A stretch of 40,823 nucleotides of DNA from an uncultured Candidatus Peribacteria bacterium (GCA_964541635.1 CAZIQM010000003.1:1-40823); one strand, 5' to 3'. Positions 2 through 33,939 are shown, counted from the stretch's first letter. A program made the numbers and translations. The notes: generated from the letters alone by a model not told the origin.

Positions 2-358
2 TTCCCGGGCGAATACTTCACCCTCAAGGTCAGCCAGATCGACGCGTCGTCGACCGACCGCGACGGCGTCTCGAAGTACCGCGTGCGCCTCGACTTCCTC
101 GACCAGAAGGAAAGCGAGCGCGTGAAACTCGGCATGACGGGCGACGCCATGATCATCACGGGCTTCACGAATGACGTCACGTACGTTCCCATCCGCTCGG
201 TCCTCGAGCGCGACGACGGCACGAAGTACGTCCGCGTCCTGAAGGACGGCGCCATCGAAGAACGCACCGTGCAAACGGGGATGGAAGGCGAAGGCAGCAC
301 GATCGAAACTCTCGGCGTCCAGGAAGGGGAAACCGTCATCGTCCTCGTCAAAGAATGA
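2..358 (+). CDS. Efflux adaptor (MacA/HlyD-type membrane-fusion protein), C-terminal fragment; 5' end outside the window
   Basis: Frame 2 is open from the window edge to TGA 356-358. The translation (FPGEYFTLKVSQID...VKLGMTGDAMIITGF...YVPIRSVLERDDGTKYVRVLKDG...ERTVQTGMEGEGSTIETLGVQEGETVIV) looks like the C-terminal beta-barrel/membrane-proximal end of efflux adaptors. The stop overlaps the ATPase start (ATGA 355-358). Confidence 0.55.
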   Translation, partial: FPGEYFTLKVSQIDASSTDRDGVSKYRVRLDFLDQKESERVKLGMTGDAMIITGFTNDVTYVPIRSVLERDDGTKYVRVLKDGAIEERTVQTGMEGEGSTIETLGVQEGETVIVLVKE

Positions 359-1101
359 TGAAGAACAACGACGCGCCGCTCATCAGCCTCAAGAACCTCA
401 CGAAGTCGTACGACAACGACGGCGTCGTGACGGACGTCCTCTTCGGTATCAACCTCGACATCAAGAAGGGCGAATTCGTCGCGATCATGGGCCCGTCGGG
501 TTCCGGCAAATCGACTCTCATGCACATCATCGGGTTCCTCGACAGCCAGACCACGGGTGATTACCTGTTCCAGGGCGAGCCCACGCTGGCGTTCGACGAC
601 GACGAACTCGCCAAGATCCGCGCCACGCGCGTGAGCTTCGTGTTCCAGGCGTTCAACCTCCTGCCGCGCACGACGGTGCTCCAGAACGTGCTCCTGCCGC
701 TCCTGTACCACCCGACGATTCCCGCGAAGGAGCGCATGACGCGCGCCCTTAACGCCATCGAAACGGTCGGGCTCACGCACCGCAAGGACTACCTCACGAG
801 CCAGCTCTCCGGCGGCCAGAAGCAGCGCGTCGCCATCGCGCGCGCCCTCGTGACCGATCCCGACGTCATCTTCGCCGACGAGCCGACGGGCAACCTCGAC
901 TCGACCTCCGGCGTGGCGGTCATGGAAGCGCTGCAGAAGCTGCACGCGGACGGCCACACGATCATCCTCGTCACCCACGAACGCACGACCGCCGAGCATG
1001 CCGAGCGCATCATCAAGATCCGCGACGGCCGCATCGAGAGCGACACGCGCGACTTCAAGCGCGTCATCGCGACGGAGAAGGAATCCGATTCCCTCAAGTA
1101 A
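355..1101 (+). CDS. ABC transporter ATP-binding protein, MacB/LolD type
   Basis: Walker A GPSGSGKST, Q-loop, ABC signature LSGGQKQRVAIARAL, Walker B VIFADEPTGNLD, H-loop VTHE. High GC3 in frame. Confidence 0.92.
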   Translation: MMKNNDAPLISLKNLTKSYDNDGVVTDVLFGINLDIKKGEFVAIMGPSGSGKSTLMHIIGFLDSQTTGDYLFQGEPTLAFDDDELAKIRATRVSFVFQAFNLLPRTTVLQNVLLPLLYHPTIPAKERMTRALNAIETVGLTHRKDYLTSQLSGGQKQRVAIARALVTDPDVIFADEPTGNLDSTSGVAVMEALQKLHADGHTIILVTHERTTAEHAERIIKIRDGRIESDTRDFKRVIATEKESDSLK

Positions 1102-1104
1102 CCC

Positions 1105-2328
1105 ATGAGGATCGCCGATACCCTCACCGCCGCCGCCAGGGGAGTGTCGGGCAACCCGACGCGGTCGCTGCTGACGATGCTCGGCATCATCATCGGCGTC
1201 GGCGCCGTGGTGCTCATGAGTTCCGTCGGCCAGAGCATGACGGGCGTCATTTTAAGCCAGATCAGCAGCCTCGGCCCGAAGAGCATGGTCATTTTCCCGG
1301 GCCAGGAAGGCGGCGCGGGCCAGATCGCCGCCGGACACGACAGCCTCACGTTCGACGACCTCAACGAACTCGAGAAGCTCTCGTCGATCGAAAGCGTCGC
1401 CCCGCTCATTTTCATCAGCGGGCGCGTGAGCTACGGGCGCGAGGAAGCGTCCTCGCAGGTCATGGGCGTGACGCCGGAATTTTTCTCGAACCAAACCATC
1501 GTGGCGACCGAGGGGCGGATCATCGGCCCGGAAGACAACGATGCCGCCGCGTCCGTCGCGGTGCTCGGTCCGGACGCCAAGGAAAAACTCTTCGGCCAGC
1601 AAGACCCGATCGGCAAACGCATCAAGATCGGCGAGAACCACTACGCCGTCATCGGCGTGACCAAAGCGCTCGGCTCGCAGTTCTTCCAGAACGCGGACGA
1701 CCGCATCTACGTGCCGTTCACCAAAGCCAGGCAAGTCACCGGCCAGAAGTACCTGAACCAGGTCACCATGCTCGCGACCGATTCGTTCGACCTCGCGTTC
1801 GCCGACGTGAAGTTCCTGCTCAGGCGCCAACACGGCATCGACAACCCGACCGATGACCCGAAGAAAGACGATTTCGTCACGCACTCGTCCGCGGAAGCCG
1901 CGACGATCCTCGGGTCGGTGTCGCTCGGCCTCACGCTTTTCATCACCACCGTCGCCGCCATCTCGCTCCTCGTGGGCGGCATCGGCATCATGAACATCAT
2001 GCTCGTGTCCGTGTCCGAACGGACGCGCGAAATCGGCCTGCGCAAGGCGATCGGCGCGCGCAAGCAGGACATCCTCCTGCAGTTCCTGCTCGAGGCCATT
2101 TTCCTCACGCTGCTCGGCGGCCTCATCGGCCTCGCGTGCGGCGTGCTCCTCGCGTTCGTCATCGCGATCTTCGCGCAAACGGTCCTTTCCACGTATTCCT
2201 TCGCCGTGTCGGTGCCGTCGGTGGTCGTGTCGGTCATGATGGCCGGCTTCACCGGCATCATCTTCGGCGTCTCGCCCGCGCGCAAAGCGTCCGAACTCAA
2301 GCCGATCGAAGCCCTCCGTTACGAATAA
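1105..2328 (+). CDS. ABC transporter permease, MacB/FtsX type (paralog 1)
   Basis: N-terminal TM (LLTMLGIIIGVGAVVLM), a large periplasmic domain, and a C-terminal FtsX-like 3-TM bundle with GGIGIMNIMLVSVSERTREIGLRKAIGA. Ends ...IEALRYE. Confidence 0.88.
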   Translation: MRIADTLTAAARGVSGNPTRSLLTMLGIIIGVGAVVLMSSVGQSMTGVILSQISSLGPKSMVIFPGQEGGAGQIAAGHDSLTFDDLNELEKLSSIESVAPLIFISGRVSYGREEASSQVMGVTPEFFSNQTIVATEGRIIGPEDNDAAASVAVLGPDAKEKLFGQQDPIGKRIKIGENHYAVIGVTKALGSQFFQNADDRIYVPFTKARQVTGQKYLNQVTMLATDSFDLAFADVKFLLRRQHGIDNPTDDPKKDDFVTHSSAEAATILGSVSLGLTLFITTVAAISLLVGGIGIMNIMLVSVSERTREIGLRKAIGARKQDILLQFLLEAIFLTLLGGLIGLACGVLLAFVIAIFAQTVLSTYSFAVSVPSVVVSVMMAGFTGIIFGVSPARKASELKPIEALRYE

Positions 2329-3542
2329 TGCTCACCCGCGACCTCATCCAATCGGCCACAGCAGGACTCACCGCCAACAAGGGCCGGGCGTTCCTCACGA
2401 TGCTCGGCGTCATCATCGGCGTCGCGTCGGTCGTGCTCATGGTGTCGATGGGCCGCAGTTTCCAGAACTACATCCTCACGCAGATCGAATCCGTCGGCAC
2501 CAACATGGTCGAGGTGATCCCGACCGGTCTCCAGAAGTTCGGCGGCAACCTGGAATCGATCACGTTCGAGGACTACGAGGCCGTGAGCAAACTCTCGACG
2601 GTCGAACGCACCACGCCGATCATCCTCATTTCCAAGACGGTGAGTTACGGGAACGAAGAGGTGTCGCCGATGGTGTTCGGCGCGTACCCCGTCTTCGCGG
2701 CCAACTACGGCCTCGTGCTCGGCGAGGGGCGCATGATCGACGATTCCGACGACGACGGCGCGCGCTCGGTGGTCGTCATCGGCCCGAAGACGGCCGAAGA
2801 CCTGTTCGGCAACGTGGATCCGCTCGGCAAACGCATCGACGTGGGCGGCAACTCGCTCACGATCGTCGGCGTCTTCTCGTCGAAAGGATCGGCGCTCACG
2901 GAGGATTTCGACAAGCTCCTGCTCGTCCCGTTCTCCACCGCCAGGTCCATCAGCGGCCAGAAGCACCTGAGCTTCATCAACATGCGCGCCGTCGGCGACC
3001 CGGATCTCGCGGTGCAGGACGTGAAATCGGTGCTGCGCCAGCGCCACCGCATCGACAACCCCACGGACGATCCGGACAAGGACGACTTCATCGCCCGTTC
3101 CGCCGAGCAAGTGACGGCCATCGTCGGTTCGGTCACGCTCGGGCTCACCGTGTTCCTCTCGCTCGTCGCGGCGATCTCGCTGCTCGTGGGAGGCATCGGC
3201 ATCATGAACATCATGCTCGTGTCGGTGACGGAGCGGACGCAGGAAATCGGCCTGCGCAAAGCGATCGGCGCGAAGAAAAAGGACATCTTGTGGCAGTTCC
3301 TGCTCGAATCCGTTTCGCTGACCCTCACGGGCGGCATCATCGGCATCGTCATCGGCGTGTCGTTCGGGTGGTTGCTCTCGAAAGTGGCCGACAAGGTCCT
3401 CGGCGGGTTCGATTTCGTCCTCAGCGGCACCGCGATTATCCTCGCGCTCGCGATGGCCATCGGCACGGGTCTCGTCTTCGGCCTGTACCCCGCGCGGAAA
3501 GCCGCCAACCTCCACCCGATCGAGGCGCTCCGGTTCGAGTGA
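2328..3542 (+). CDS. ABC transporter permease, MacB/FtsX type (paralog 2)
   Basis: Start trimmed to ATG 2328 (TAATG overlap with the upstream stop); the track ORF from 2136 is an out-of-frame run through the previous gene. Same architecture and motifs as paralog 1 (GGIGIMNIMLVSVTERTQEIGLRKAIGA ... IEALRFE). Confidence 0.88.
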   Translation: MLTRDLIQSATAGLTANKGRAFLTMLGVIIGVASVVLMVSMGRSFQNYILTQIESVGTNMVEVIPTGLQKFGGNLESITFEDYEAVSKLSTVERTTPIILISKTVSYGNEEVSPMVFGAYPVFAANYGLVLGEGRMIDDSDDDGARSVVVIGPKTAEDLFGNVDPLGKRIDVGGNSLTIVGVFSSKGSALTEDFDKLLLVPFSTARSISGQKHLSFINMRAVGDPDLAVQDVKSVLRQRHRIDNPTDDPDKDDFIARSAEQVTAIVGSVTLGLTVFLSLVAAISLLVGGIGIMNIMLVSVTERTQEIGLRKAIGAKKKDILWQFLLESVSLTLTGGIIGIVIGVSFGWLLSKVADKVLGGFDFVLSGTAIILALAMAIGTGLVFGLYPARKAANLHPIEALRFE

Positions 3543-3869: not shown

Positions 3870-4994
3870 CTACCGCACGGGCGCGAACCCGCCGCGGATG
3901 CCGTAGGGCGACAGCACCAGCTGCCACAGCTGGATGTTGCGCGACCGGAATGATCCCGCGCAACAGAGGAGGTAGTACCGGAACATGCGTTCGAACCGCT
4001 CGCCGTAGCGCTCCCGGAATTTCGGCCACGCGGCGGCGAAATTCGCGTGCCACGCGAGTAGTGTTTTGTCGTAGTAGGCGCCGAAGTTGTGCCAGTCTTC
4101 GATCACGAAGCGCGTGTCGATCGCGTGCGCCATCGCCGCTTGCCCCGGCAGCGCAGAGTTCGGGAAGATGTGCGCTTCCAGCCAGGGGTCTTCCGAGACC
4201 GCGTCGGCGCCGATCGTGTGGAGCAGGAAGCGTCCGTCCGGCTTGAGAAGCGAGCGGGCCTTCTCCATGTACGTGACGTAGTTTTTCGCGCCGACGTGCT
4301 CGAACATGCCGACGGACACGATTTTGTCGAACTGCCCCTCCATGTCGCGGTAGTCGCATTTCACGATGTCCACGGGCAAACCGGCGGTGAACGATCGGGC
4401 GAACGCGATTTGCTCGTCGCTGATGTTGATGCCCGTGACGCGGCACCCATGGTGTTCCGCGAGGTATTTCGCGAGCCCGCCCCAGCCGCAGCCGATGTCG
4501 AGCACCCTTTCGCCCGGCTTCACGTCCAACTTCCGCGCGATGAGGTCGAGTTTTTGGCGTTGCGCCGTCGCGAGATCGTCGGTGTCCTTGAAGTACCCGC
4601 AGGAGTACTGACGGTAGGGATCGAGCATCGCGCCGTAGAACTCGTTGCCCAGGTCGTAGTGCTCCTTCGCGACTTTCGTCGCCTTGCGCCGGGTTTGCTG
4701 GTTGAACATCCGCACGCGCAGGATGTGCGCGACCTGGCGCAATTGGGTGGGCAAGTGGCTGCCGATCCTCGCCCTGAGCACCCGGTCGAAGAACCCGTCG
4801 AGCGCGTCGCAGTCCCACCAGCCGTCCATGTACGAATCCCCGAGGCCGAGGGATCCTTCCGCGAGGATGCGGTCGAACAGCCGTTCGTCGTGCACGCGGA
4901 TGTCCCACGGTCGGTCGCCGTCGACGCGTACGTCGGCGCCCGCGAGCAGCGGCTCCAGGAACGATCGGCCCGTGTCGGTGGCGGCGTGTTTCAT
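3870..4994 (-). CDS. cfa: Cyclopropane-fatty-acyl-phospholipid synthase (SAM-dependent methyltransferase)
   Basis: Characteristic CFA-synthase blocks: GLGDSYMDGWWDC, HYDLGNEFYGAMLDPYRQYSCGYF, SAM motif VLDIGCGWGGLAKYLAE, FDKIVSVGMFEHVG, YYLLCCAGSFRSRNIQLWQLV. Start set at ATG 4994 (MKHAATD...). Confidence 0.88.
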   Translation of the reverse strand: MKHAATDTGRSFLEPLLAGADVRVDGDRPWDIRVHDERLFDRILAEGSLGLGDSYMDGWWDCDALDGFFDRVLRARIGSHLPTQLRQVAHILRVRMFNQQTRRKATKVAKEHYDLGNEFYGAMLDPYRQYSCGYFKDTDDLATAQRQKLDLIARKLDVKPGERVLDIGCGWGGLAKYLAEHHGCRVTGINISDEQIAFARSFTAGLPVDIVKCDYRDMEGQFDKIVSVGMFEHVGAKNYVTYMEKARSLLKPDGRFLLHTIGADAVSEDPWLEAHIFPNSALPGQAAMAHAIDTRFVIEDWHNFGAYYDKTLLAWHANFAAAWPKFRERYGERFERMFRYYLLCCAGSFRSRNIQLWQLVLSPYGIRGGFAPVR

Positions 4995-5119
4995 GCGAAG
5001 GGAAAGTATACACCCGTCGACGGACGAAGCGCCCGAACATGACAAAACGGGCCCCCCGAGGGGTTCCCGTCGTCGTTGCCAACTCCTCGCGGGGCTGGCC
5101 GATGGTTGATCCGAACGCC

Positions 5120-6090: not shown

Positions 6091-6903
6091 TCAAACCTTC
6101 CGGAAGGCGCCCATCGTGGCCACGTAGAGCGCGGCGACGCTGCATCCGAGCACGATCCAGACCGCCGGACCGCTGTCCGCTTGCTTCGTTGGCTTGTGTT
6201 CGGTGACGCCCGGTTTCCTCGACGAGCTCGATTTCGCGCCCACGACGTGCGGGTTCACCGCGATGACGTTCGCGCCCACCGGGCTCGGCCCGACGGAGCT
6301 CGATTGCTGCGTGGGGAAGGGGACCGCGGACAAGGACGACGATTGCGCGATCGGCGCGGCGGACGACGTGACGGGCGCGAGCGACGTCGCCGAAGCGACC
6401 GACGACTGGCTCGATGCCGCGCCCCCCGTCGCGGAAATAACGATCTGGCCGCTGAAGTCGGGGGAGGTTTGCGAGATGTAGTCGTACGTTCCTTCGGGTG
6501 CGCCCGCCGGCGCCGTGTAGAAGGCGTCGTCGTTCGGGAACACGCTCGGCGTGCTGAACGGCTTTCCGTCGGACGTCGGGAGCGTGGTCGACGTCAGGAC
6601 GTGGGGGATTTGATCGTCGTTCACCCAACGTATCGTTTGCCCCGGCTTGATCGTGGCAGGGGTGGGATCGGGTCCGTCCTGCTTGAGGTGCACGGTGACG
6701 TCCGGCGTGGGGTTCGTGAGCTGGCCGATGAGGTCGCCGAGGCCGCCGAACGAATAGGCGACGGCGCCGACCATGAGGGCGATGCCCACGGCTGCCGCCG
6801 GCGCGCGCGACACGCGGATCGGGCGGCGGTCATCCGTTTTCGCGCGGACGGGAACGATCTGCTCGTCCTCGGTGGATTGCCAGTGCGGATGCATGGGCGT
6901 CAT
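6091..6903 (-). CDS. Membrane-anchored surface protein with a degenerate cupredoxin-like domain, a Ser-rich linker and a C-terminal sorting-signal-like tail
   Basis: Start chosen at ATG 6903 (ATGA overlap with the upstream stop); the track start at 6930 is also possible. N-terminal TM AAVGIALMVGAVAYSF. Cupredoxin-like strands IKPGQTIRWVNDDQIPHVL ... PEGTYDYISQTSPDFSGQIVI. C-terminus DSGPAVW + TM + FRKV. Confidence 0.6.
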   Translation of the reverse strand: MTPMHPHWQSTEDEQIVPVRAKTDDRRPIRVSRAPAAAVGIALMVGAVAYSFGGLGDLIGQLTNPTPDVTVHLKQDGPDPTPATIKPGQTIRWVNDDQIPHVLTSTTLPTSDGKPFSTPSVFPNDDAFYTAPAGAPEGTYDYISQTSPDFSGQIVISATGGAASSQSSVASATSLAPVTSSAAPIAQSSSLSAVPFPTQQSSSVGPSPVGANVIAVNPHVVGAKSSSSRKPGVTEHKPTKQADSGPAVWIVLGCSVAALYVATMGAFRKV

Positions 6904-8267
6904 CGGGGAAGGGCGGAACTGGCCGTCCATTGGCGGCGGAAGGCGAAGGCCGTGCCGAGGACCGCGGAGACGCCGACCATGGCGGCGACCCAGGATCCCG
7001 GTCCGGATTCACCCGACACCGAACCGTCGGTGTAGGGGGCGTTGCCCTGCGGGCCTTCGATCAGGTTGCCGGACAAGGGCGACGTCGACGTCGCGGGATT
7101 GCCGATCGTGACGGCCACTTCCTGGCTGAAGTCGCTCTCGGCGCCCGAAGCGTTCACGGCGCGGACGGCGAAGTAGTAGGTCATGCCGACAGGCAACGCG
7201 CGGATCGTCACGGTTTGCGCTTCCTTGTCGACGCTGCGCTGCTGGAGGTAGCGGCCGGAGATGGAGCCGTAGTAGAGCTTGTAGCCGGTCACTTCGGCGG
7301 AGGGCAGCGGGTTCCACGCGAGGAAGGCGGAGCTGCCTTCGGTGGTCACGCGCAGGGCTTGCACTTGGAGCTTCGAGAACACGACCGGCGCCGCCGGGAC
7401 CGACGACGAGGAAGACGACGCCGAGGAGACGGCGGGCTTCGAGGAGGTCGCGGCGGTCGACGAGGGAGCGGACGATGCCGGCGCGGACGAGACCGCCGGC
7501 GCGGCGGAGGACGCCGTGGCGCCCGTGGAGGTCGCGACGACCGGGACGACCGGGACGACCGAGGCGACGGACGAGGCGGAGGAGCCCGACGCGGCGAAGC
7601 GGACGGCGAGCGCGCCCTGGACCGCGGAGGCGACGTTACGTTCCTTGTCGCCGTCTTTCGCGAACGCGCCCGTGTGGGCGGTGTCGGCTGCGATGGCGTC
7701 GTAGTACGAGAGGACCGTGCCGTTCGCCGGGACGGATTTCACCGTGAGGGTGATGCGCGCCAGGACGACTTTTTCGTCTTTCACCGGTTCCGTCGAGGAA
7801 GCGCTGACCTTGATGTAGTTGTCGGCGCTGGAGAAATCGCCTTCGCCCGGGACCGGAACGGCGAACGCCTTCGACAGTTCGAGCGTCTTCCCTTCGAGGA
7901 CGTTCGAATCGTAGCCGATCCACACGCGGTAGCGCGTGATCGCTTCCTTCTTGGGATTGTGCATCACGAGGTCCATGTCGAGCGTGTCGCCCACTTTCAG
8001 GACCGGCGTTTGCTTGCTCAGGGGGTCGCGCACCTCATAGCTGGGGCACGGCAAGGCGGAACCTTCCGTCAGGACCGTGATGCCGTCGATCTGCGGGATC
8101 TCGCCGCCGAACGTTTCGCTCGCGGCCGCGTGGTCGGCGTCGACGCAGTGCGGGCGCAGCTCGAACACGGTTTCGCCGGGCGTTTGCGCCGAGGCCGCCG
8201 CGGGGGCGAGCGGGAGCAACGCCACGAGGGCGGAGAGGCCGAGCCGGAGCGCGTGGGTGTGTTTCAT
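6900..8267 (-). CDS. Secreted/anchored cohesin-like + fibronectin type III protein with a C-terminal sorting-signal-like tail
   Basis: Start trimmed to ATG 8267 (MKHTHALRLGLSALVALLPLAPAAASAQ is a signal peptide). Cohesin-like block at about aa 85-225 (KVGDTLDMDLV...RVWIGYDSNVLEG...VVLARITLTVKSVPANGTVLSY). S/A/P/V linker. FN3 at about aa 296-388 (AFLAWNP...GYKLYY...LPVGMTYYFAVRAVNASGAES). Tail ESGPGSW + TM + FRRQ. Confidence 0.65.
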   Translation of the reverse strand: MKHTHALRLGLSALVALLPLAPAAASAQTPGETVFELRPHCVDADHAAASETFGGEIPQIDGITVLTEGSALPCPSYEVRDPLSKQTPVLKVGDTLDMDLVMHNPKKEAITRYRVWIGYDSNVLEGKTLELSKAFAVPVPGEGDFSSADNYIKVSASSTEPVKDEKVVLARITLTVKSVPANGTVLSYYDAIAADTAHTGAFAKDGDKERNVASAVQGALAVRFAASGSSASSVASVVPVVPVVATSTGATASSAAPAVSSAPASSAPSSTAATSSKPAVSSASSSSSSVPAAPVVFSKLQVQALRVTTEGSSAFLAWNPLPSAEVTGYKLYYGSISGRYLQQRSVDKEAQTVTIRALPVGMTYYFAVRAVNASGAESDFSQEVAVTIGNPATSTSPLSGNLIEGPQGNAPYTDGSVSGESGPGSWVAAMVGVSAVLGTAFAFRRQWTASSALPR

Positions 8268-8286
8268 TGTGTGTGCGTGTGTGTTG
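8268..8286. repeat. Imperfect GT/CA dinucleotide tract filling the dockerin-cohesin intergenic spacer
   Basis: tgtgtgtgcgtgtgtgttg on the plus strand, CAACACACACGCACACACA on the coding strand, immediately 5' of the ATG at 8267. No Shine-Dalgarno. Confidence 0.8.
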
Positions 8287-8610
8287 TCAGCGCGAGAGGA
8301 TTCCGCGGAGGACGCGAATGGCGTCGTCGACGCCCAGGATGCCGTTGCCGTTCGGGTCCGCCGCCAGTTCCTGGGGCGTGGCCGTCCGGTAGCCTTGCGC
8401 GATTTCGAGGATGACGATGGCGTCGGCGGCATCCACGGTGCCGTCCGCGTTCACGTCGCCGCGCGGGGCGTCCGTGGCGAGGGATCCCGCGATGGTCCGG
8501 AGGTTGCCCGCCGTTTGCATGCCGAGCGCGAACGACGCCGTCACCGCGAGAAGGCCCAGCGGAAGCAGGGTGGTGATGCGTTTGCGCAGCGTCGTGGGGA
8601 GTGTGGACAT
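8287..8610 (-). CDS. Small dockerin-domain protein with an N-terminal signal peptide or anchor
   Basis: 107 aa. Hydrophobic N-terminus RITTLLPLGLLAVTASFALG, then two EF-hand-like dockerin repeats: GDVNADGTVDAADAIVILEIAQG and ADPNGNGILGVDDAIRVLRGIL. Confidence 0.7.
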   Translation of the reverse strand: MSTLPTTLRKRITTLLPLGLLAVTASFALGMQTAGNLRTIAGSLATDAPRGDVNADGTVDAADAIVILEIAQGYRTATPQELAADPNGNGILGVDDAIRVLRGILSR

Positions 8611-14870: not shown

Positions 14871-16139
14871 TTAGATCGGTAAGGCTTCCAGCTTGATCGC
14901 CGGGCGATCCTCCTGCTTCTGGTGCTCCCCGACGTCCATGTCTTCGCCCGTCGCCGCGTCGATTTCCTTCGCGGAGATGATGAGGCGGCGCAGGGTGGTG
15001 CCCACCGGCGTGCAGGTCATGAGCGTCGCGATGCGTTTATTGAGCGGTTGGTCGAGGACCGTCACGTCGCTCGGGAGGATTTCCTTCTTCGTTTCGATCA
15101 CGTAGCGGTATTTGTCGCCGCCGTGGTACACCCAGAATTCGTCGCCCACCTGCAATTCCCCGAGGCGCGCGAAGATCGATTTGTATCCGCCGGGCGCCCA
15201 CGGGAAGTACGAGCTGTGGCCCGTGAGGAAGAAGTTGCCGGCTTGGCCCGGCTCCGCCGTTCCCGGGTAGTGGACGACGCCTTGTTCGAGTCCGTGCTGG
15301 ATGTCGGTTTCGAGCTGCTTCCAGTCCTCGCGCACGAGGGAATCCGTCGGCAGGGTCACGATCGGCGCGCGCAGGTCGAGGCCCGGGATGATGAGGATGT
15401 CTTCGGGCGGGCCCACGAGCGGCAGGTGCGCCGCCAAACCTTCGTCGGCGTCGCCCGCCGTGGGCAGCACCGGGACTTGGCGGAGTTTTTCCGCGAGCGA
15501 CTTCTGCGCGGAAGCGGAACGGTCGAGGTGCGTGAATTCGAGGATAGGTTCGATGCGCGCCGACGCGATGGCGCCGAAGCTTTCGTAGTTCATCGCCGAG
15601 AAGAGCACCGCGAAGATCGCGGCGAAGGTGCCGCCGAAGCGCACGATGTCGAGCGCGAAGAGCGTCCCGCGGCTGTACTGCTTCACGCGTTTGCGGCTGG
15701 CCGGCACGAGCACGGGCTGCGTGAGGAACCGCCCGAACGAGCGGATCGCCGTCTTGAAATCGCCGAGGATGGTGGACGAAGCGTCGAAGCCCCCTTCGAG
15801 GCTCGCGCGCAATTGGCGTTCGCCTTCCTGCAGCACGCCCTTGGCGGCGACGAGCGTGCCGCGCTCGGCTTCGGCCAACGCTTCGGCGCAGGACTCGCGC
15901 ACCGCGCGGAGGTTCTCGCCGATGCGCAGGGCGGCGTGTGCGCGCTGCACCGAGGGGAGTTCGGAAATGTCCTCCGCCGGTTCGTCCGGCAAGCCCCACT
16001 GGATCGCGTCGAAAGCGCTGGTTTCTTCCTCGATCGGCATCGCCGGCACGGGCTTTTCCGCCGGCGTGTCCGACGGAAGGATGATGTTGCCGTCGGAGTC
16101 GTATCGGGCGCGCTTCATGCGGGTCGGATCGTGGTTCAT
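14871..16139 (-). CDS. Sortase-family transpeptidase with a long N-terminal cytoplasmic extension
   Basis: Catalytic His in FFLTGHSSY, Cys in ATLMTCTP (TLxTC motif), Arg in LRRLIISA. A single TM (FGGTFAAIFAVLFSAM) follows about 170 residues with no recognisable family. Confidence 0.8.
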   Translation of the reverse strand: MNHDPTRMKRARYDSDGNIILPSDTPAEKPVPAMPIEEETSAFDAIQWGLPDEPAEDISELPSVQRAHAALRIGENLRAVRESCAEALAEAERGTLVAAKGVLQEGERQLRASLEGGFDASSTILGDFKTAIRSFGRFLTQPVLVPASRKRVKQYSRGTLFALDIVRFGGTFAAIFAVLFSAMNYESFGAIASARIEPILEFTHLDRSASAQKSLAEKLRQVPVLPTAGDADEGLAAHLPLVGPPEDILIIPGLDLRAPIVTLPTDSLVREDWKQLETDIQHGLEQGVVHYPGTAEPGQAGNFFLTGHSSYFPWAPGGYKSIFARLGELQVGDEFWVYHGGDKYRYVIETKKEILPSDVTVLDQPLNKRIATLMTCTPVGTTLRRLIISAKEIDAATGEDMDVGEHQKQEDRPAIKLEALPI

Positions 16140-17338: not shown

Positions 17339-17899
17339 TTATAGCCTATAGGTTTTGCCGCCTTTGTCGGACCATTCGTAGATCAGTTCGGAATCGAGGC
17401 TTATGAACAGTTTTTTCACGGACAGTTGGATCGTATCGGCCACGGCTTCGTCATCATTCGTCATCGTGATCGGACCGATATCGATCAGCCCTTTTACCAG
17501 CATCCGCTTATCGCCTTGTTCACAGCGGAATCCCTCCAAAGGAATGGGGGATTCGTAGATATATTTTTGGCCTGCTTTGAAGACGCGCAGGTTCGTGATG
17601 TCGATCCGATCATCCCTGCAGAGATCCATGTATATTTTGACATCGCCGTTTTCCGCGAACAGCAATCGCGAATTCGCGCCACGGTAGTAGGGTTTGGCGC
17701 CTTCGAGTTCGAAATGCCAATCGAGCTGTACGTCCTCGCCGTCGATGTTCGCTTCGCCGCCGGATACCACCGGTTGGATAGCTGGGAATACGTGGCTCGG
17801 CGAGGTCCTGGGGGCGAAGTGCAGATTGAAAAGGTATGCGATCGGCAACGCGACCAACACGATCCCGGCAGCCGTGTTCATGAATTTGTCGATCGTCAT
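17339..17899 (-). CDS. Small membrane-anchored hypothetical protein (candidate immunity/partner of the upstream giant protein)
   Basis: 186 aa. The ATG overlaps the stop of the upstream gene (ATGA 17896-17899). One N-terminal TM (AAGIVLVALPIAYLF), then a domain of about 150 aa. About 50% GC in my sample counts. Confidence 0.6.
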   Translation of the reverse strand: MTIDKFMNTAAGIVLVALPIAYLFNLHFAPRTSPSHVFPAIQPVVSGGEANIDGEDVQLDWHFELEGAKPYYRGANSRLLFAENGDVKIYMDLCRDDRIDITNLRVFKAGQKYIYESPIPLEGFRCEQGDKRMLVKGLIDIGPITMTNDDEAVADTIQLSVKKLFISLDSELIYEWSDKGGKTYRL

Positions 17900-20800
17900 A
17901 GCTTTTTCGTAAGGAATGAAACCAGTTCGTCGAGCATGAGTTTGGATTGTTCCCTGTCGGAGTCATCGATGCTCAGGTGATGTACCCCGTCGAATGTCAT
18001 TTCCTTTTGGTCTTCGTACGCCCAATTGCGACCGAGGATATAGGTTCCATGGGCGGGTACGCCATGTTTCATGAGCAGGTCGATGTTGTCTATGAGGCTA
18101 CCGTCGTCGAACGGTGTCAGGCCCAGGAGCACACTTTCAGCCACTTGTTCGATCGTGACCGTAGAACTCAACTGATACCTGTTGAAGAGCGCGTCCACCG
18201 ATCCTGCGGCCAGTGCCGGCTGGCTCATGCCCGCGTATCCGAGTTGCACCGCGTCGATCACGCCCAGTTTCACGGGAATGCCCGCGTACGTCGGATTGTT
18301 TTCCAGCTCGCTCGCCATGTCGATGGCGGTGCCTCCACCCCAACTGTACCCCGCCATGTCTATCTCGTTCACAGTTCCGGAATTTGGCGAGATGCCTTGG
18401 TTCTTCAGTCGCTCGAACACCACCTCCAAGGTGAGTTGAATGATGAGGAACGTGTTGTGCAGCAGCGGCTCGAACGCCAGGACGACGCGGAATTGCAGGA
18501 TCTCGTATCCCGCGAGTTTCGATTGCACGTATTCCATGCCTATTTTCTTCACGTCTCCATCGATCGTTTGCAAATGGCCGTCGATCAAGATCACCAATTT
18601 CCCGGGGTGCGTGCCGTTTCCGGGTTGGTACTCCATGAGCCCAGCTTGTTTCATGATTTCGTGCTTCAGGGCGTATTCCTGCCCGGACGCGACGGCTTTC
18701 AGCATCGGGATGACCGGCTGCATGCGGTTGATCGTGAGGTCGGCGAGTGCGTCCACTTTCTCGTTCGCGACGTTCACGACTTCCTGGCCGACATCGTACG
18801 CGACGGTCGCGGCCCATACCGCCTTGCGCTTGATAGCCGTGACTTCGCGGACGAGGGACGCCGACAGGCCCACTATTTTGTCTTCGATCCAGTCATCGAC
18901 TTCTGCGGCGATGAGCTTGTTCACCTCGTTCTCGATGCGCACCCACGGGTTCTCCTCCGGCGGAATCGTCGGGATGTAGGATTCGATGACCTGGTCGAGG
19001 ACGCCCTTGCCCGGTTTGATGAGCGGGACCGTCGACTGGTTCACGTTCGGCTTGAAATCGAGGGGCTCGAGTTCCATCTGCGCGCGACCGAACAAGTGTT
19101 CGAACATTTGGTCGAACGTTCCGAACGAAACGTCCGTCGACGCGATTTGGTACGCGCCGAGGTTCATAAATTCTTCTTCCGTTTTCAGCAGGTGGATGTA
19201 GTGGGCTTTCCCGCGGGCGCTGAGGTACGTGTTCATGAATTGCTCGGGCGAAACTGATGTCGCGATCCGCTCCATCGTTCCCGCGAACTCCCCTTCGCCC
19301 GCGTTCGTCCCTTTGTCCCTGTCGTTCGTCGGATCCTGGTCTGTGTCCGCCATGATCGCGTCCACGGCTTTCTCGTACGTTTCGCGGGCGATCGATTCCA
19401 AGCCCGGGCGCCCGAGCGCTTCGCGCGCGGCCACGATCTGCGGGTGGTTCGACGCCATGAGGGCGTCGACCGCGCGCCGGTTCACCGCGGCCAAGCGGTC
19501 CCGATCCGAGGCCGACGAACCGTCGGGATCGTGGCGCGCGAGTTTCCCGAGGCGGCTGTTCGATTCGGTTTGGCCGCCCGCGAACCGCGTGACGATCGAC
19601 ACGATCGGGCGGTCCGACGTGGCATCGGCGGGTGTGCTCGGCGCGCGCACATTCGCGGAGAGCATCAGCGACTGCCCGCCGCCGATCGACGCGGTGAGCG
19701 TCTTTTGCAACGTGCCGCGTTCAGGCTGGCCCGCGTACCAACCCGCGTACACGTCGAACCACAGGGTGCCTCCGCCCATCGCTTCGTTGCGCACCTGGTA
19801 CTTCACGTTCGCGATGTGCCCGGGCGCGGAGAAGACGGGCGATTCGCCCTCGCGGATTTCCGTCACGCCGGGGAAGACGCCTTCCGTTTGGTGCTGTTCG
19901 TACATCTTGAGCATCGACACGTCGACTGTCTCGGGACCCATGGCTGCCGGGGGCAGCACCGATTCCATCGTCGCGCCTTGCTTGGTGCTCACGGATCCCG
20001 TCGCGCCGACCATCCACGTGCCGAACGAAAGGAGCCGCGGTGCCCCCGGCGCGATCACGACCGTGTTCGGGTCGATCTGTCGCACGTAGCCTTCGGGGAA
20101 CCCGGACGTGGTCACGGTTTCGCGCCCCATGTAATCGACCCCCGTCTTCATGATCGTTCCCACCCACGCGATGCTCCCGGATCCCTTCGTGTAGTTGATG
20201 CGGACCATCGTGTATTGGCTCGGGTCCCGCTCTATGTAAAAACGCTTGTCGCCGTTGCCGCTGGGGCTCGAGAGCAAATTCAGCGTCTTCGCCGCCGCGG
20301 CGACGTTCGTCGCCATCGGCACCGACGGCGCAGCCGCGAGCGCGTAGGACGGCGAGGTGAACTGCGTGAGCGCGTCCGGCGAGGCGTCCTGCATCGAGGC
20401 GAGTACCGAGGCTTCGAGGCCTGTCACCTGGACCGGCGTCCGATCCGACGGGCGGAAGAGCACGTCGGTGAACCCGATGTCGTTCTCGTACGTGAAAACC
20501 CCCGCCGCCGGGACGGGCACCGTCGCGATGATGTCGTTGCCGCGGAACACGGTCGCCGACACCGTCATCGCCGGGTTCGCGGGCGTCACGGTCGCACGCA
20601 CGCCGCGCACCATGCCGTCGAAACCCCGCAGGTTCACGTGATTCGCGTAGCTTTGCAGGTTCGCGCTCGTCGCTTCGGCGCCGACAGGAGCCCTCCAGCC
20701 CGCGTCCGGCGCGGTGAGCGTGATCACGTCCTGGATGAGCGTCCGGATTTCCGGAGGGATGGTGGTATCCGCGGCGGCGACCTGCCTGCCTTCCAACGTT

Positions 20801-20985
20801 TCGTACGAGAGACTGCGCGTGGATCGTTCGGGCATGCGGGGTGGGGGAAGATGCGAGCACATCCAACCCCGATCGGAGGTCGCCGACGCGGCGGTGCTTT
20901 GTCCAGTGCCGCGCGCATGCCCACCGATAGGGCTCGCGGGCGTTCCTTCCGCACGAAGCGCGGCTTGAGAATGTTTTATGGTCAT
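17896..20985 (-). CDS. Giant hypothetical protein (about 1029 aa) with a C-terminal alpha/beta-hydrolase (lipase/esterase-like) module
   Basis: The track ORF (to 21243) is trimmed to ATG 20985 so that it does not run through the divergent gene. A later start (ATG 20835) is possible. In-frame GC3 is consistent throughout. Nucleophile elbow IDMAGYSWGGGTAI (nt 18337-18351). I see no signal peptide. Confidence 0.7.
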   Translation of the reverse strand: MTIKHSQAALRAEGTPASPIGGHARGTGQSTAASATSDRGWMCSHLPPPRMPERSTRSLSYETLEGRQVAAADTTIPPEIRTLIQDVITLTAPDAGWRAPVGAEATSANLQSYANHVNLRGFDGMVRGVRATVTPANPAMTVSATVFRGNDIIATVPVPAAGVFTYENDIGFTDVLFRPSDRTPVQVTGLEASVLASMQDASPDALTQFTSPSYALAAAPSVPMATNVAAAAKTLNLLSSPSGNGDKRFYIERDPSQYTMVRINYTKGSGSIAWVGTIMKTGVDYMGRETVTTSGFPEGYVRQIDPNTVVIAPGAPRLLSFGTWMVGATGSVSTKQGATMESVLPPAAMGPETVDVSMLKMYEQHQTEGVFPGVTEIREGESPVFSAPGHIANVKYQVRNEAMGGGTLWFDVYAGWYAGQPERGTLQKTLTASIGGGQSLMLSANVRAPSTPADATSDRPIVSIVTRFAGGQTESNSRLGKLARHDPDGSSASDRDRLAAVNRRAVDALMASNHPQIVAAREALGRPGLESIARETYEKAVDAIMADTDQDPTNDRDKGTNAGEGEFAGTMERIATSVSPEQFMNTYLSARGKAHYIHLLKTEEEFMNLGAYQIASTDVSFGTFDQMFEHLFGRAQMELEPLDFKPNVNQSTVPLIKPGKGVLDQVIESYIPTIPPEENPWVRIENEVNKLIAAEVDDWIEDKIVGLSASLVREVTAIKRKAVWAATVAYDVGQEVVNVANEKVDALADLTINRMQPVIPMLKAVASGQEYALKHEIMKQAGLMEYQPGNGTHPGKLVILIDGHLQTIDGDVKKIGMEYVQSKLAGYEILQFRVVLAFEPLLHNTFLIIQLTLEVVFERLKNQGISPNSGTVNEIDMAGYSWGGGTAIDMASELENNPTYAGIPVKLGVIDAVQLGYAGMSQPALAAGSVDALFNRYQLSSTVTIEQVAESVLLGLTPFDDGSLIDNIDLLMKHGVPAHGTYILGRNWAYEDQKEMTFDGVHHLSIDDSDREQSKLMLDELVSFLTKKL

Positions 20986-21031
20986 ATTCCGCCGCTTCGA
21001 CCGTCTTCGGAAGCGGTGTACACTCGCCCAT

Positions 21032-22111
21032 ATGCAAAACCCCTCACTCCAGCACTTCATCGCCCACGCCCGCTCGAAGGGCATGGACCACCAGACGATC
21101 CGGATGTTGCTCCTGTCGTCCGGGTGGAAAGAGAAGGACATCGTCGAAGCCCTGACCGAAGCCACGCTCGACATGCCGGTGCCCGCGCCGGAAGACCGTG
21201 GCGGCGCCCGCGAAGCCTTCTTCCACTTGCTCGCCTTCGTCACGCTCTACGCGAGCGTCATCAGCGTGCTGTTCCTGCTGTTTGAATTCCTCAACCGCCT
21301 CTTCCCCGATGCCGCCTTCGACTACACGTACTACGACGATTCGTCGTCCATCCGCTGGTTCATGGCGGTGATCATCGTGTCATTCCCTATCTTCGTGTGG
21401 ATGTCGCGCATCATCCAGCGCGAGATCGCGAAATCGCCGGAGCGCGCATGGAGCCCGGTCCGCCGATGGCTCACGTACCTCACGCTCTTTGTCACGGCCG
21501 GCGTGCTCGTCGGGGACGGGATCACGTTGCTTTTCTATTTGCTCCAGGGCGAAATCACGGTCCGCTTCATCCTGAAGGTGCTCGCGGTCCTCGGCGTCGC
21601 GGGCATGGTGTTCAGTTACTATTTCCTGGCGCTCAAGTCATCCGCGAACCGACTCCAAGCGTCGAAGCTCAACCGCGCGTACGGCGCCCCCGCGTGGGTC
21701 ATCGCGATCGCGGTGGTCGTGTGGGGAATGATCGTGGCCGGAACGCCGATGGAACAACGTTTGGTTCGCCTCGACGAGCGCCGCGTGAACGATATGCGCT
21801 CGATCCAGCAGGAAATCTACAACATCGCGTACGAAGGCTCGGATCGCTATAACAACGGCAAGCCGTACACCAGTTTGCCCCATCCGTTGCCCGCGACCTT
21901 GGACGACGTCGTCGCGAAAGCAGTGAACGTCCGGCCGTCTATCACCGATCCTTCGACCGGAGCGGCGTACGAATACGAACCCAAAGCGACGTCGTTCTCG
22001 CTGTGTGCCACGTTCGACACGGCGCAGGACAAGGATTACGACGTCTTCTGGAACCACCCCCTTGGGCGCCATTGCTTCGTGTTCAACGCGCTGGACCCGA
22101 TGACGAAGTGA
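21032..22111 (+). CDS. Multi-pass membrane protein (DUF5671-like) with an N-terminal helical module and a C-terminal extracytoplasmic domain
   Basis: Start trimmed to ATG 21032. N-terminus [33 protein letters not shown], then about 6 TM segments and a tail of about 110 aa with two Cys. 4 nt upstream of prfA. Confidence 0.6.
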
Positions 22112-27939: not shown

Positions 27940-30246
27940 ATGCGGTATTCCTTCTCTACCCGTGCTTGGCTCGCACTCGCGGTCCTCGCGCTCTCGCTCC
28001 CCGTCGGCTTCGCCGGCCTTGGCCAGCTTTTGACGCCGACGCCGATCGTCATCGACGACGGCGCCTCCGCGCCCGCGTTCCAGACCACGGGAACGTGGGT
28101 ATCGCTCCCGATAGGCAATGCCGAACGCTCTTCCTTGCGCTACAGCAGCAAGGGCACGGCCACGTGGACCGCTTCCGTGGCGCCGGGCACCTACGCGGTC
28201 GACGTGTCGGTTCCTCCGCTGCTTCGCGTCGTGCAGCAAACGTATTCCGTGACGGACGGAAGCTCCGTCATCGGCACGTTCATCGTTCCCCGCTACGTGC
28301 CGGGCGATAAGAAGGCGCAGTCGAATTGGATTTCCGGCGTGACCGTGTCGACCGCGAACGGCACCATCGCCGTGACGCTCTCCGTGTCCGCAGGCATCGG
28401 CGTCGCCGATGCCGTCAGGATCACCCCCGTCGCAGGAACTTCCTCGTCTTCCTCCTCGTCGTCGTCCGCGCCCGTCTGCGGCAACAACGAAGTGGAAGGC
28501 CAGGAACAGTGTGACTTCGGCGCGATGAACGGGCAGCCCTGCATGGCTCCCGCCGGCGTGTCGTGCACGTATTGTTCCGCGTCCTGCACGCGAGTCGTCG
28601 TCGACGGAGTCCGCCCCTGGTCCGGCTCTAGCTCGTCACCGGCGCCGGCATGCGGCAATGGCATCGTGGAAGGCCAAGAACAGTGCGACGACGGCGTCGC
28701 GAACGGCACGATGTGTGAATCGGTGATCGGTGGTTCCTGCAGCTATTGTTCCGCGTCGTGCACGCGCGTCATGGTAGGCGGTCGGAGTTCCTCCTCGTCT
28801 TCCGTCTCCTCGTCCGTTTCTTCTTCTTCTTCTTCTTCTTCTTCTTCTTCGTTCGTTTCCTCCTCGTCGTCTTCGATCGCGGGAACGTGCTCGGACGGCA
28901 TCGACAACGACGCCGACGGTGGCGCCGATGTTGCGTCCCTGACGCAGGCGGCTCCGACGGGATCCAAACACCGCAGCACGTTCGTGTCGCGTGATGCATT
29001 CAAGGGCGTTTCGTACATCATGTACCAGGACGAATCGAACGCCGCCCAGACCATCGAGGCGCGCGACGCGAGCAATTCGCTCGTCGCTTCCAAAACGTTC
29101 GATACCACAACCGTGCGGCGCGACGTGTTCGGCTCGCCCGCGATCGACTCGTGGACCCGGATGTTCACGAAACCGTACTATTCCGATTTCACGACGGCGA
29201 ACGCTGACGCCGTGTTCGGGCTCGTCGCCGACAGCACAGTGGCCACCGTCGCGGTCGGCACGGCGGGCACACCGGCGTCTCGCACGGTCAAAGAGTCGAA
29301 AGTCGTACGCTATTCCTCCGACTTGTCGAAGATTGAGGCCGTCCTTTCTACGGGTACGGATCGTTTCCCACATGGTCGCATGTTCGCCACGCCTGACGGC
29401 ACATCGCTCGTGTTGTTCGCGGTCGGCACCGTCAAGCGCATGGAGGTGCCAAATGCCGCGAATGAGTATTCATCGCCGTTCATCCTCGTGATCGATGCCG
29501 CCACCTTCGCGGTGAAGGCCCGTTATGCGGTCGATACGCCCGACATGGCGATCCCGTATCCGTTGTACGTCGGGAACGACAAAGTCGTGTTCGCGCTCAA
29601 CCGCATCAAACAGCCTTTCTACAGCGTCGGCATCTTCGCGAACGCCGAACGCCTGCCCGTCCAGATCGTCGAGTTCATTCCGTCGACGGGCGCCGCTCGC
29701 ACCGTTGACCAGGGCTATAACATCGTCGTGGGCGTCCCGGGCGATCCTCGCGCCCTCTCCGATGGATCCTTTGCGTACCTGACGGTCGCGCAGGAAACAA
29801 AGCAGCCCAACGGACAAAAGACGCAGGTGCCGTATCTCGCCAAGATCGACGTGTCCACGCTTTTGACCGCTGGCGCCGTTCGGCTGCCCTCGGATTACGG
29901 ATTTGGCACGAGGATCATCAAGCTCCTGCCCAACGGATACCTCGCGACGCTCCGCACGCGCCTCGTCGCGCAATCGAACACGCTCGACGAGGAAGTCGTG
30001 CTCTATAAGGCATCGGGTATTTCCGGCATCGTCGCGGAGCAGGCGGCGACTGTTGCCGAAGGAATCATGATGCGATCGCCCGATGCACTTTTCGTTCGCA
30101 CGAACAACGCCGTGCCGCGCAGTCAGCACATGAGTTTCGATCAGACGACCGGAACGTTCTATGACTTCGACGGAGTCAACTTCTCGATGCTCGTCCGAAC
30201 GTTGCGGTCCGATGCGCAGTGCGTCTCGGCCGCGACGCCCGAATGA
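27940..30246 (+). CDS. Secreted mosaic protein: golvesin-C-like N-domain, 2 Cys-rich repeats, poly-Ser linkers, a DNDxDG motif, and a large beta-rich C-terminal domain
   Basis: Signal peptide MRYSFSTRAWLALAVLALSLPVGFAG. N-domain ending GVADAVRITPV. Repeats CGNNEVEGQEQCDFG...CTYCSASCTRV and CGNGIVEGQEQCDDG...CSYCSASCTRV. GTCSDGIDNDADGGAD. About 420 aa of C-terminal domain. Confidence 0.75.
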   Translation: MRYSFSTRAWLALAVLALSLPVGFAGLGQLLTPTPIVIDDGASAPAFQTTGTWVSLPIGNAERSSLRYSSKGTATWTASVAPGTYAVDVSVPPLLRVVQQTYSVTDGSSVIGTFIVPRYVPGDKKAQSNWISGVTVSTANGTIAVTLSVSAGIGVADAVRITPVAGTSSSSSSSSSAPVCGNNEVEGQEQCDFGAMNGQPCMAPAGVSCTYCSASCTRVVVDGVRPWSGSSSSPAPACGNGIVEGQEQCDDGVANGTMCESVIGGSCSYCSASCTRVMVGGRSSSSSSVSSSVSSSSSSSSSSSFVSSSSSSIAGTCSDGIDNDADGGADVASLTQAAPTGSKHRSTFVSRDAFKGVSYIMYQDESNAAQTIEARDASNSLVASKTFDTTTVRRDVFGSPAIDSWTRMFTKPYYSDFTTANADAVFGLVADSTVATVAVGTAGTPASRTVKESKVVRYSSDLSKIEAVLSTGTDRFPHGRMFATPDGTSLVLFAVGTVKRMEVPNAANEYSSPFILVIDAATFAVKARYAVDTPDMAIPYPLYVGNDKVVFALNRIKQPFYSVGIFANAERLPVQIVEFIPSTGAARTVDQGYNIVVGVPGDPRALSDGSFAYLTVAQETKQPNGQKTQVPYLAKIDVSTLLTAGAVRLPSDYGFGTRIIKLLPNGYLATLRTRLVAQSNTLDEEVVLYKASGISGIVAEQAATVAEGIMMRSPDALFVRTNNAVPRSQHMSFDQTTGTFYDFDGVNFSMLVRTLRSDAQCVSAATPE
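28818..28850 (+). repeat. Perfect (TTC)11 trinucleotide microsatellite, read as TCT = Ser in frame
   Basis: ttc x 11 read directly at 28818-28850, inside the poly-Ser linker of the 27940..30246 gene. Confidence 0.95.
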
Positions 30247-33912: not shown

Positions 33913-33939
33913 TTATCACTCAAACGGCCCGAGTGCTAG
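33913..33939. promoter_or_regulatory. CIRCE (HrcA operator) inverted repeat upstream of groES
   Basis: TTATCACTC-N9-GAGTGCTAG compared with the consensus TTAGCACTC-N9-GAGTGCTAA (2 mismatches), 47 nt upstream of the groES start. Confidence 0.8.

Follow-up and report, generated by a model that had tools for sequence, protein, structure and literature searches.

How bacteria of the candidate phyla radiation (CPR) breach their hosts and obtain the lipids that they cannot make is an open question, and a locus of an uncultured Candidatus Peribacteria bacterium raises it in a concrete form. Peribacteria are without fatty-acid synthesis, and large extracellular proteins are numerous in their genomes (PMC4736985); no mechanism of lipid uptake or breakdown has been identified so far in CPR bacteria (PMC11665869). 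In a stretch of DNA of 40,823 nucleotides (nt) (GCA_964541635.1 CAZIQM010000003.1:1-40823), hereafter the window, a gene on the minus strand encodes a very large protein, here called the effector (P0001), and it overlaps an open reading frame (ORF) of 186 amino acids (aa). Is this pair a toxin and its antidote? A preliminary description of the window, made from the sequence alone, had proposed a polymorphic toxin-immunity pair. Polymorphic toxins are defined by the recombination of toxin-immunity cassettes (Zhang, de Souza, Anantharaman, Iyer, Aravind 2012; PMC3482391). Our analysis supports the proposal through the swapped C-terminal tips of the relatives, the downstream ORFs that co-vary with them, an α/β-hydrolase fold with its triad, and a relative that carries an EndoU domain. 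The large protein is probably an exported polymorphic effector with an α/β-hydrolase tip, encoded together with a cognate protective protein; its toxicity, a lipid substrate, its neutralisation and its export route are what we infer from these features.

The effector is read from a single long frame, whose maximal ORF spans 17896..21243 on the minus strand. The N-termini of ten of ten homologues open with the conserved pattern M-P-x-R...L-x-[FYL]-E-x-L-E-x-R, which corresponds in the window to MPERSTRSLSYETLEGRQV and to the ATG at 20835. Because the shared N-terminus maps there, translation probably starts at 20835, giving 979 aa, rather than at 20985. The ORF of ~1029 aa described previously does exist, and its ATG at 20985 is in frame, but it is probably not the one used; ATG 20862, also in frame and upstream of 20835, is a possible alternative. 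An N-terminal extension from a conserved upstream ATG was dismissed, since this codon is out of frame in the related locus L003. A first-round search of 5.8 billion proteins gave only ten relatives, which have only residues ~22-500 in common and fall into three C-terminal types, the hydrolase type being P0001-P0003. When a profile of this core was compared with 1.84 billion representatives, 68 clusters were found, 13 of them close. All named members of the family belong to Candidatus Peribacteraceae or Candidatus Peribacteria, in the CPR. The earlier statement that no family is recognisable over the first ~850 residues does not hold, given that residues ~22-500 form a core found in 68 protein clusters, and the conserved body is ~480-500 residues long instead of the ~800 aa then supposed.

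Among three relatives, P0019, P0020 and P0010, identity is 84-93% up to residue ~860-880 and drops below ~25% beyond it. After the shared ~870 residues, P0019 has an M23-like tip, P0020 a hydrolase of the window type, and P0010 a PF00151-like lipase. The lipase-type tip matched Pfam PF00151 with E = 8.5e-5, below the cut-off, and hornet phospholipase A1 (PDB-id 4qnn) with E = 7e-7 when a profile was used. The M23-like tip has a weak Pfam match together with NCBI/IMG annotations as M23 metallopeptidase or MepM/NlpD, and was not confirmed by a PDB sequence search. In the wider family there is a CHAP/Amidase_6-like tip, by a weak match, and P0033 carries an EndoU_bacteria domain (PF14436, E = 4e-18, above the cut-off), which in the full-length cluster member P0086 is found behind a leader of the same type. 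In P0033 and P0086, EndoU is preceded by a stretch rich in Gly, GLTPVGWAGDVRD...GFVPGIGDIGKA, that recalls the pre-toxin TG domain of other polymorphic toxins; an EndoU-type toxin would need to enter the target cytoplasm. The hydrolase of the window is also found on distant bodies (P0029, P0037 and P0059). The bodies across the family are made of β-sandwich, β-propeller and LamG domains, and the N-terminal additions (a β-propeller, a module of ~200 aa, or none) pair freely with the tips. The preliminary description had suggested asking whether the N-terminal body is kept in related genomes while the tip and the downstream gene are swapped, and this is what is seen in P0019, P0020 and P0010 and in the families of their downstream ORFs. 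That the architecture is polymorphic can be regarded as almost certain.

The C-terminal module of the window effector was aligned with eight other sequences (alignment A3, nine sequences). With identities down to 27%, all nine keep the motifs Y-S-x-G-G-G, D-A-V and H-x-x-I, and with them Ser831, Asp861 and His953, which correspond to Ser101, Asp131 and His223 in module numbering; His953 is the sole invariant histidine. The serine codon and its nucleophile elbow, as well as the aspartate (KLGVIDAV) and histidine (FDGVHHLS) candidates, had been proposed from the window alone, and all three residues prove to be invariant, the codon position being exact. In the AlphaFold2 (AF2) model, made from the nine-sequence alignment, with a predicted local distance difference test score (pLDDT) of 73.5 and a predicted template-modelling score of 0.78, the elbow consists of strand 94-100, then Ser101, then helix 102-116, while Asp131 comes directly after strand 125-130. 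A Foldseek comparison with the PDB gave an α/β-hydrolase fold for 50 of 50 among the matches listed (for the top ones, probability ~1, E ~1e-4, template-modelling (TM) score 0.3-0.46), which include thioesterases, esterases, lipases, cutinases/PETases and dienelactone hydrolases. Since a G-x-S-x-G motif is expected by chance ~0.4 times per 979 aa, by our own estimate, we placed weight on conservation and fold and not on the motif. From the alignment and the model, we have high confidence that the module is an α/β-hydrolase with a Ser-Asp-His triad, and the fold check that had been suggested earlier thus came out in its favour, with the triad kept in distant homologues.

The nature of the substrate is less certain. 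Pfam scans of the nine module sequences gave nothing significant, with only marginal elbow matches to Thioesterase and Cutinase, and none of the nine matched PF00151. Thus, the "lipase-like" label of the preliminary description stands as to the fold, as seen with AF2 and Foldseek, and not as to lipase itself: the models support the α/β-hydrolase fold alone. The module does share features with PF00151. The spacing from the serine to the acid is 30 residues in the window module and 27 in the sister lipase tips, and in both cases the acid immediately follows a strand, a short way past the nucleophile helix; the sister tips match this family and the window module does not. In pancreatic lipase the same spacing is ~24 residues. 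We put the chance that the substrate is a lipid at slightly below even.

The stop codon of the effector overlaps the start of the 186-aa ORF in an ATGA at 17896-17899 (AAG CTA TGA / ATG ACG), as had been reported, and the two genes are thereby translationally coupled. The small protein has a single hydrophobic segment, at residues ~5-24, and with Pfam, at a limit of E = 1, it gave a single match, to the irrelevant Permuted_GreAB-C (12.9 bits); there is no match in a PDB sequence search. The initial picture of one N-terminal transmembrane helix and no recognisable family is therefore retained. Homologues of the 186-aa ORF were found only directly after the same hydrolase, two in tandem in locus L001 and one in L017. 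With the window counted, the small-ORF family thus accompanies the hydrolase at three of four loci examined that encode a full-length protein with this tip, and these lie at two chromosomal positions. Locus L001, which encodes P0002, is syntenic with the window (prfA, DUF5671, effector, partner, mnmA). L017 is a different chromosomal locus, and its effector, P0020, differs in N-terminal architecture; here the homologue (E = 2e-15) follows with a 4-nt overlap and has the same C-terminus, YEWSxKGGxTYRL. The synteny of the small ORF with the module, which had been put forward as a check, is thus found in the window, L001 and L017 and fails for P0003 in L002. The other tips have other partners. 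Lipase-type effectors are followed by a family of Cys-rich anchored ORFs, and M23-type effectors by a family of ORFs that end in AYAFCAEKDGKAVAICIQQMTDDEAMAKQIFESFRWTD and whose N-termini, judged by eye, are lipoprotein-signal-like in three of four loci. The comparison of downstream ORFs gave three partner families for three tip types, and an ORF that overlaps or lies at most 41 nt downstream was present for every full-length relative examined whose contig runs past the gene. We consider it somewhat more likely than not that the 186-aa partner is an immunity protein.

Another partnership would produce much of this pattern. The small ORF could encode a folding, secretion or anchoring partner of an enzyme that is still exported, as do the genes for Lif, the membrane-anchored lipase-specific foldases encoded after the lipases of Pseudomonas and Burkholderia; tight coupling, an N-terminal anchor and co-variation with the type of enzyme are equally expected of such a helper. 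However, the 186-aa ORF is without any relevant Pfam match, hence without one to Lif, its product has about half the size of Lif, and it looks β-rich by eye. Peptidase-type and lipase-type tips have co-varying partners of their own, which is not known for foldases. Moreover, the partner is tandem-duplicated in L001, as immunity genes often are, and a partner-like gene lies beside a truncated module in L008. A helper function is on this evidence unlikely, though it is the best of the competing explanations, and we continue with the small protein as a candidate antidote.

The body that carries these tips was modelled from an alignment of ten sequences. The AF2 model of the core (pLDDT 81.7) comprises several β-sandwich domains followed by two long helices, which form a conserved helical hairpin (~residues 442-498) just ahead of the point at which the relatives diverge. 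With Foldseek, the core matched RbmA, a protein of the biofilm matrix, and glycoside hydrolase family 2 (GH2) enzymes, the latter over ~260-310 alignment columns of proteins of 800-1200 residues with TM-scores below 0.2. We read the GH2 matches as matches to non-catalytic β-sandwich accessory domains and not to the catalytic barrel; a glycosidase was dismissed on account of their partial coverage and low TM-scores. The model is of a kind that would suit an extracellular stalk or binding region and not an enzyme. The linker between core and hydrolase is common only to the relatives with the same hydrolase, P0002, P0003 and P0020.

Base composition changes within the gene. The GC content falls from ~0.67 to ~0.56 precisely over the variable half of the effector and the small ORF, while the core (19300-20835) and mnmA, which flank this cassette, have 0.64-0.71. 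The change in composition, at ~19300, falls at residue ~510, immediately past the helical hairpin, and the relatives diverge there too; the hairpin may be a homology anchor for recombination, like the conserved motifs before the tips of other polymorphic toxins. The GC content of the window overall is high, at ~63%, and so is the average of 58.5% reported for complete Peribacteria genomes (PMC4736985). At the start of the contig in L008, the segment 1-2499, with a GC content of 0.42-0.54 over most of its length, holds a lipase-type partner-like gene (446-1105), a 5'-truncated hydrolase module (~1154-1750, P0014) and an anchored ORF of 248 aa (1753-2499). It may be a displaced or orphan cassette array, in a contig that ends before any main gene. 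No orphan toxin-immunity cassette was found in the window.

The exchange of tips also bears on the possibility that the family consists of the producer's own envelope-remodelling enzymes, autolysins and lipid-remodelling esterases, with downstream membrane regulators. M23, CHAP and amidase domains are those of classic autolysins, and the envelope biosynthesis in which these bacteria invest heavily (PMC4736985) would fit such a role. Yet unrelated enzymes sit on near-identical bodies, the EndoU RNase toxin of one member has no function in the envelope, the GC content of the cassette is atypical, and housekeeping enzymes are not normally exchanged at one locus among close relatives. Self-remodelling therefore has a very low probability, well under that of a helper, and a polymorphic effector that acts on other cells is preferred.

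Such an effector would have to leave the cell. No Sec, Tat or lipoprotein signal was found in the effector. Over the first 200 residues of the maximal ORF, a span that includes all candidate starts, the 19-residue Kyte-Doolittle mean stays at or below 0.52, and it is never above 1.43 anywhere in the protein; on this point the preliminary description, which saw no Sec or lipoprotein signal, was right for every candidate start. Type VI and type VII secretion system (T6SS, T7SS), TpsB or Rhs genes are absent, as stated before, among the 24 window ORFs scanned, which reach position 33923 of the 40,823. In the effector and these 24 ORFs there are no PAAR/VgrG/DUF4150, LXG/WXG100/EssC, FHA-repeat/TpsB or YD-repeat elements, and no recognised trafficking modules (T2, T5, T6, T7, PVC, MuF, PrsW). 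Pfam and NCBIfam scans of the effector and of the 186-aa ORF gave no family match, and PDB sequence searches with the whole effector, the 186-aa ORF and the module profile gave no useful one. Two further signals were dismissed: a type VII YxxxD/E signal, as its Tyr is not conserved, and a sortase substrate, as the C-terminus (...SFLTKKL) has no LPXTG, anchor or charged tail.

What the family does share is a leader. Most of the members that seem to be complete carry at their N-terminus a motif of the type L-x-x-E-x-L-E-x-R, and across 211 kb of related loci it is confined, at protein N-termini, to the effector family. It resembles LEPR-XLL, in which a short basic stretch is followed by L-E-P-R-x-L-L-like residues in very large proteins without a hydrophobic signal; relatives of the effector read LETLEPRLP, ESLEPRTTL, DRLEDRSML and EPLEDRRPL. 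The corresponding model, NCBIfam NF012209 (LEPR-XLL; model name LEPR-8K, 24 positions, cut-off 17 bits), gave 12.7 bits for P0002 and 14.7 bits for P0005, both below the cut-off; these two homologues are the only ones with a match, and the window sequence, ETLEGRQV, has none. LEPR-XLL is common in Planctomycetes, and to our knowledge no function of the motif has been established; a literature search found the annotation merely listed. On the export route, which by the preliminary description would be new if the protein is a toxin, the leader would be the sole lead, and for leader-dependent, non-Sec export the odds are about even.

The partners are anchored or lipoprotein-like and the body domains are of extracellular type, which supports an extracellular destination. 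That the effector is instead cytoplasmic, a hydrolase with an intracellular substrate, would account for the absence of signals and of secretion genes nearby but is scarcely credible, given sister tips directed at peptidoglycan, partners with anchors or lipoprotein-like signals, body domains typical of extracellular proteins, and a leader resembling one on very large secreted-type proteins.

Several observations weigh against an exported toxin with a dedicated antidote. With no signal peptide in the effector and no secretion system among the window ORFs scanned, export itself has to be deduced, and the N-terminus of the window protein has no match to NF012209. The hydrolase of P0003 in L002, 40.6% identical to the window module, is followed by an unrelated anchored protein of 322 aa, and short or fragmentary copies of the module (P0014 and P0016) adjoin other neighbours. 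The partner family of the 186-aa protein has only four known members, of putative membrane topology. In sequence, the module matches no lipase family significantly, and its profile search of the PDB was also blank; its alignment to the sister lipase tips with hhalign gave a probability of 7.5%, which is not significant, and a lipid is a candidate substrate. The structure models were built from shallow alignments of nine and ten sequences, and the loop with the catalytic histidine is poorly modelled, with pLDDT below 50 at module residues 219-229. Finally, toxicity, enzymatic activity, binding and export are all predicted properties.

A mechanism consistent with these data can be proposed. The effector would be exported independently of Sec, by a route that recognises its N-terminal leader, and its body would present or deliver the tip to another cell, which could be the host of a probable episymbiont or a competitor. 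There, the hydrolase would cut ester bonds in the target envelope, most likely in membrane lipids, and the sister tips are predicted to act on peptidoglycan. The 186-aa protein would reside in the membrane of the producer with its domain of ~160 aa outside, where it would bind the hydrolase and so shield the producer and its kin. Fresh cassettes of tip and antidote would be gained by recombination just past the conserved hairpin. As Peribacteria lack fatty-acid synthesis and the acquisition of lipids in the CPR is unexplained, the target may be the host as much as competitors. A bolder version, which we regard as doubtful, is that leader and β-sandwich body represent an unrecognised Sec-independent export and delivery route of single-membrane CPR bacteria, perhaps working with type IV pilus machinery, a PilT-like ATPase of which is encoded beside most family loci, that places interchangeable lipases, wall hydrolases and nucleases on or into host cells, serving both as a weapon and for the harvest of host lipids.

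Like known polymorphic toxins (CdiA-CT/CdiI, Rhs, LXG; PMC3482391), the family keeps a constant body at the N-terminus while toxin domains recombine at the C-terminus, has its own putative immunity gene after each tip and a possible orphan cassette, and has a catalogued toxin domain, EndoU, on one member. Lipase-like α/β-hydrolase tips are recognised among these toxins (Tox-ABhydrolase-1; PMC3482391). Judged from sequence, the defining features of polymorphic toxin systems are present here, save a recognised trafficking module. In contrast to those systems, the Peribacteria body falls outside the recognised TpsA/FHA, Rhs/YD, LXG/WXG, PAAR/VgrG, MuF and PVC modules, the effector has no signal peptide and no known secretion system among the scanned neighbours, and hydrolase, linker and partner match no Pfam family. 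The bacteria that carry the system are ultra-small and probably episymbiotic, and the target may therefore be a host cell rather than kin.

A precedent in a single-membrane organism is TslA/TilA of Staphylococcus aureus, a type VII-secreted phospholipase A with an extracellular immunity lipoprotein (PMC10730906). The Peribacteria pair resembles TslA/TilA and the T6SS pairs Tle/Tli in its GxSxG hydrolase, here predicted, acting on the membrane from outside, and in a candidate immunity protein that would be membrane-tethered and externally exposed and whose gene can be tandem-multiplied. It differs from TslA and Tle in that the effector has no LXG-like helical targeting domain, helper proteins or T7SS/T6SS genes, and in that the enzyme lies at the C-terminus of a β-sandwich body; there is no sequence similarity of the pair to TslA, the Tle families or DUF576. 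The grammar of the system is known, and the carrier body, leader, hydrolase family, partner family and lineage are undescribed in the libraries and literature searched. A literature search found no description of polymorphic toxins of CPR bacteria. For the question with which we began, the locus offers an effector family that is confined, by its named members, to one lineage, with tips that would be aimed at membranes, cell walls and RNA, with matched candidate protective proteins, and with a conserved leader that is perhaps the mark of an export route not yet known. To the polymorphic toxins catalogued so far it would add an unclassified α/β-hydrolase module, a new candidate immunity family and a new carrier body.

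Table 1 Coordinates of the effector locus and of recurrent neighbours in related loci (L numbers; all other positions are in the window).
Feature	Position	Strand	Basis or remarks
Effector gene (P0001)	17896..20835	-	979 aa; start chosen by homology
Leader motif L-S-Y-E-T-L-E-G-R, residues 9-17	20785..20811	-	Basic residues before it; non-hydrophobic
Family core, residues 22-500	19336..20772	-	β-sandwich array and helical hairpin; alignment A4, AF2, Foldseek
Cassette-specific linker, residues 501-730 (~230 aa)	18646..19335	-	BLAST ranges; low-GC part
α/β-hydrolase module, residues 731-979 (249 aa)	17899..18645	-	Alignment, AF2, Foldseek
Ser831 codon (AGT), predicted nucleophile in G-Y-S-W-G-G-G	18343..18345	-	Invariant, 9/9
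Asp861 codon, candidate catalytic acid in (I/V)-D-A-(V/I)	18253..18255	-	Invariant, 9/9; KLGVIDAV
His953 codon, candidate base in H-x-x-I-D	17977..17979	-	Invariant, 9/9; second H of GVHHLS
186-aa ORF, candidate immunity protein	17339..17899	-	N-terminal anchor; C-terminal YEWSxKGGxTYRL
Low-GC cassette (linker, hydrolase, small ORF)	17339..19300	.	GC 0.49-0.62
Divergent intergenic region shared with the DUF5671 gene	20836..21031	.	Alignment A6
PilT-like T2SSE ATPase	L004 21344-22372; L010 12593-13621; L013 357-1385; L015 10422-11450; L016 5829-6857; L017 10567-11631		
Helix-turn-helix (HTH)-like protein of 330-950 aa	L004 18068-20356; L010 4896-7754; L012 3563-5743; L015 2868-5705; L017 3593-5737; L003 20320-22515; L008 2556-3551		

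The DNA upstream of the effector gene is conserved as well. Two elements are kept in the window (20836-20960) and in L001-L004, L010, L012, L013, L015 and L016. The first is TTGACA-like, TGGACAAA / TTGACAAAA, and lies ~70-85 nt before the effector ATG on the minus strand; the second, GTTGGATG...GCATCTTCCCC in the window and GTTGGATG...GCA(T/C)CTTCCCC across the loci, lies 10-35 nt before it and includes an ATG, at 20862 in the window, whose frame agrees with that of the effector in some loci but not in L003. This conserved DNA might act as a promoter, as a leader or in regulation. Divergent from the effector is a gene for a DUF5671 membrane protein (20978-22111, plus strand), whose start, inferred from the L001 orthologue, is at ~21032 (MQNPSLQHF...) instead of 20978. 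With this start, the apparent overlap with the earlier effector start at 20985 disappears.

Most relatives, excluding the window and L001, adjoin a gene for a PilT-like ATPase and a large HTH-domain protein; because the locus is syntenic among those relatives, this adjacency is weak evidence. The PilT-like genes, immediate neighbours of the effector-partner pair, encode T2SSE ATPases of 342-354 aa with 78-96% identity from locus to locus. In some loci they lie downstream of the pair in convergent orientation, whereas in L013 and L014 they lie upstream and are divergent from it; the pair has therefore moved relative to the PilT gene yet stayed adjacent to it. The second neighbour, of 330-950 aa, adjoins most family loci and is absent from the window; its N-terminus is winged-helix-like by eye, with no Pfam match, and is followed by internal repeats, which are similar as well to the sensor region of a histidine kinase encoded nearby. 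This protein may have a part in regulating the effector.

The preliminary description had placed the pair in a co-directional run with mnmA and a sortase. Most relatives are in another locus, and both genes are thus incidental neighbours; a functional link to them was dismissed. In the sortase-domain protein (14871-16139, minus strand), the catalytic domain is preceded by ~250 N-terminal aa, an unusual length, and as the effector has no sortase sorting signal, it is probably unrelated. Farther away, a MacB-type ABC system (355-3542, plus strand) consists of an ATPase (355-1101) and MacB_PCD/FtsX permeases (1105-2328 and 2136-3542); at a distance of ~14 kb, it showed no link to the effector. 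There is also a homologue of cyclopropane-fatty-acyl-phospholipid synthase (3870-5045, minus strand; Pfam CMAS, E = 4.5e-80). As fatty-acid synthesis is reported to be absent from the lineage, this gene suggests that lipids are scavenged and, once taken up, modified. Two surface-type proteins are also encoded in the window, one with fn3 and cohesin domains (6900-8432, minus strand) and one of 768 aa with a weak DUF4215 match (27940-30246, plus strand). Both have a classic hydrophobic signal peptide, so that the other surface proteins of the window, unlike the effector, bear ordinary hydrophobic signals.

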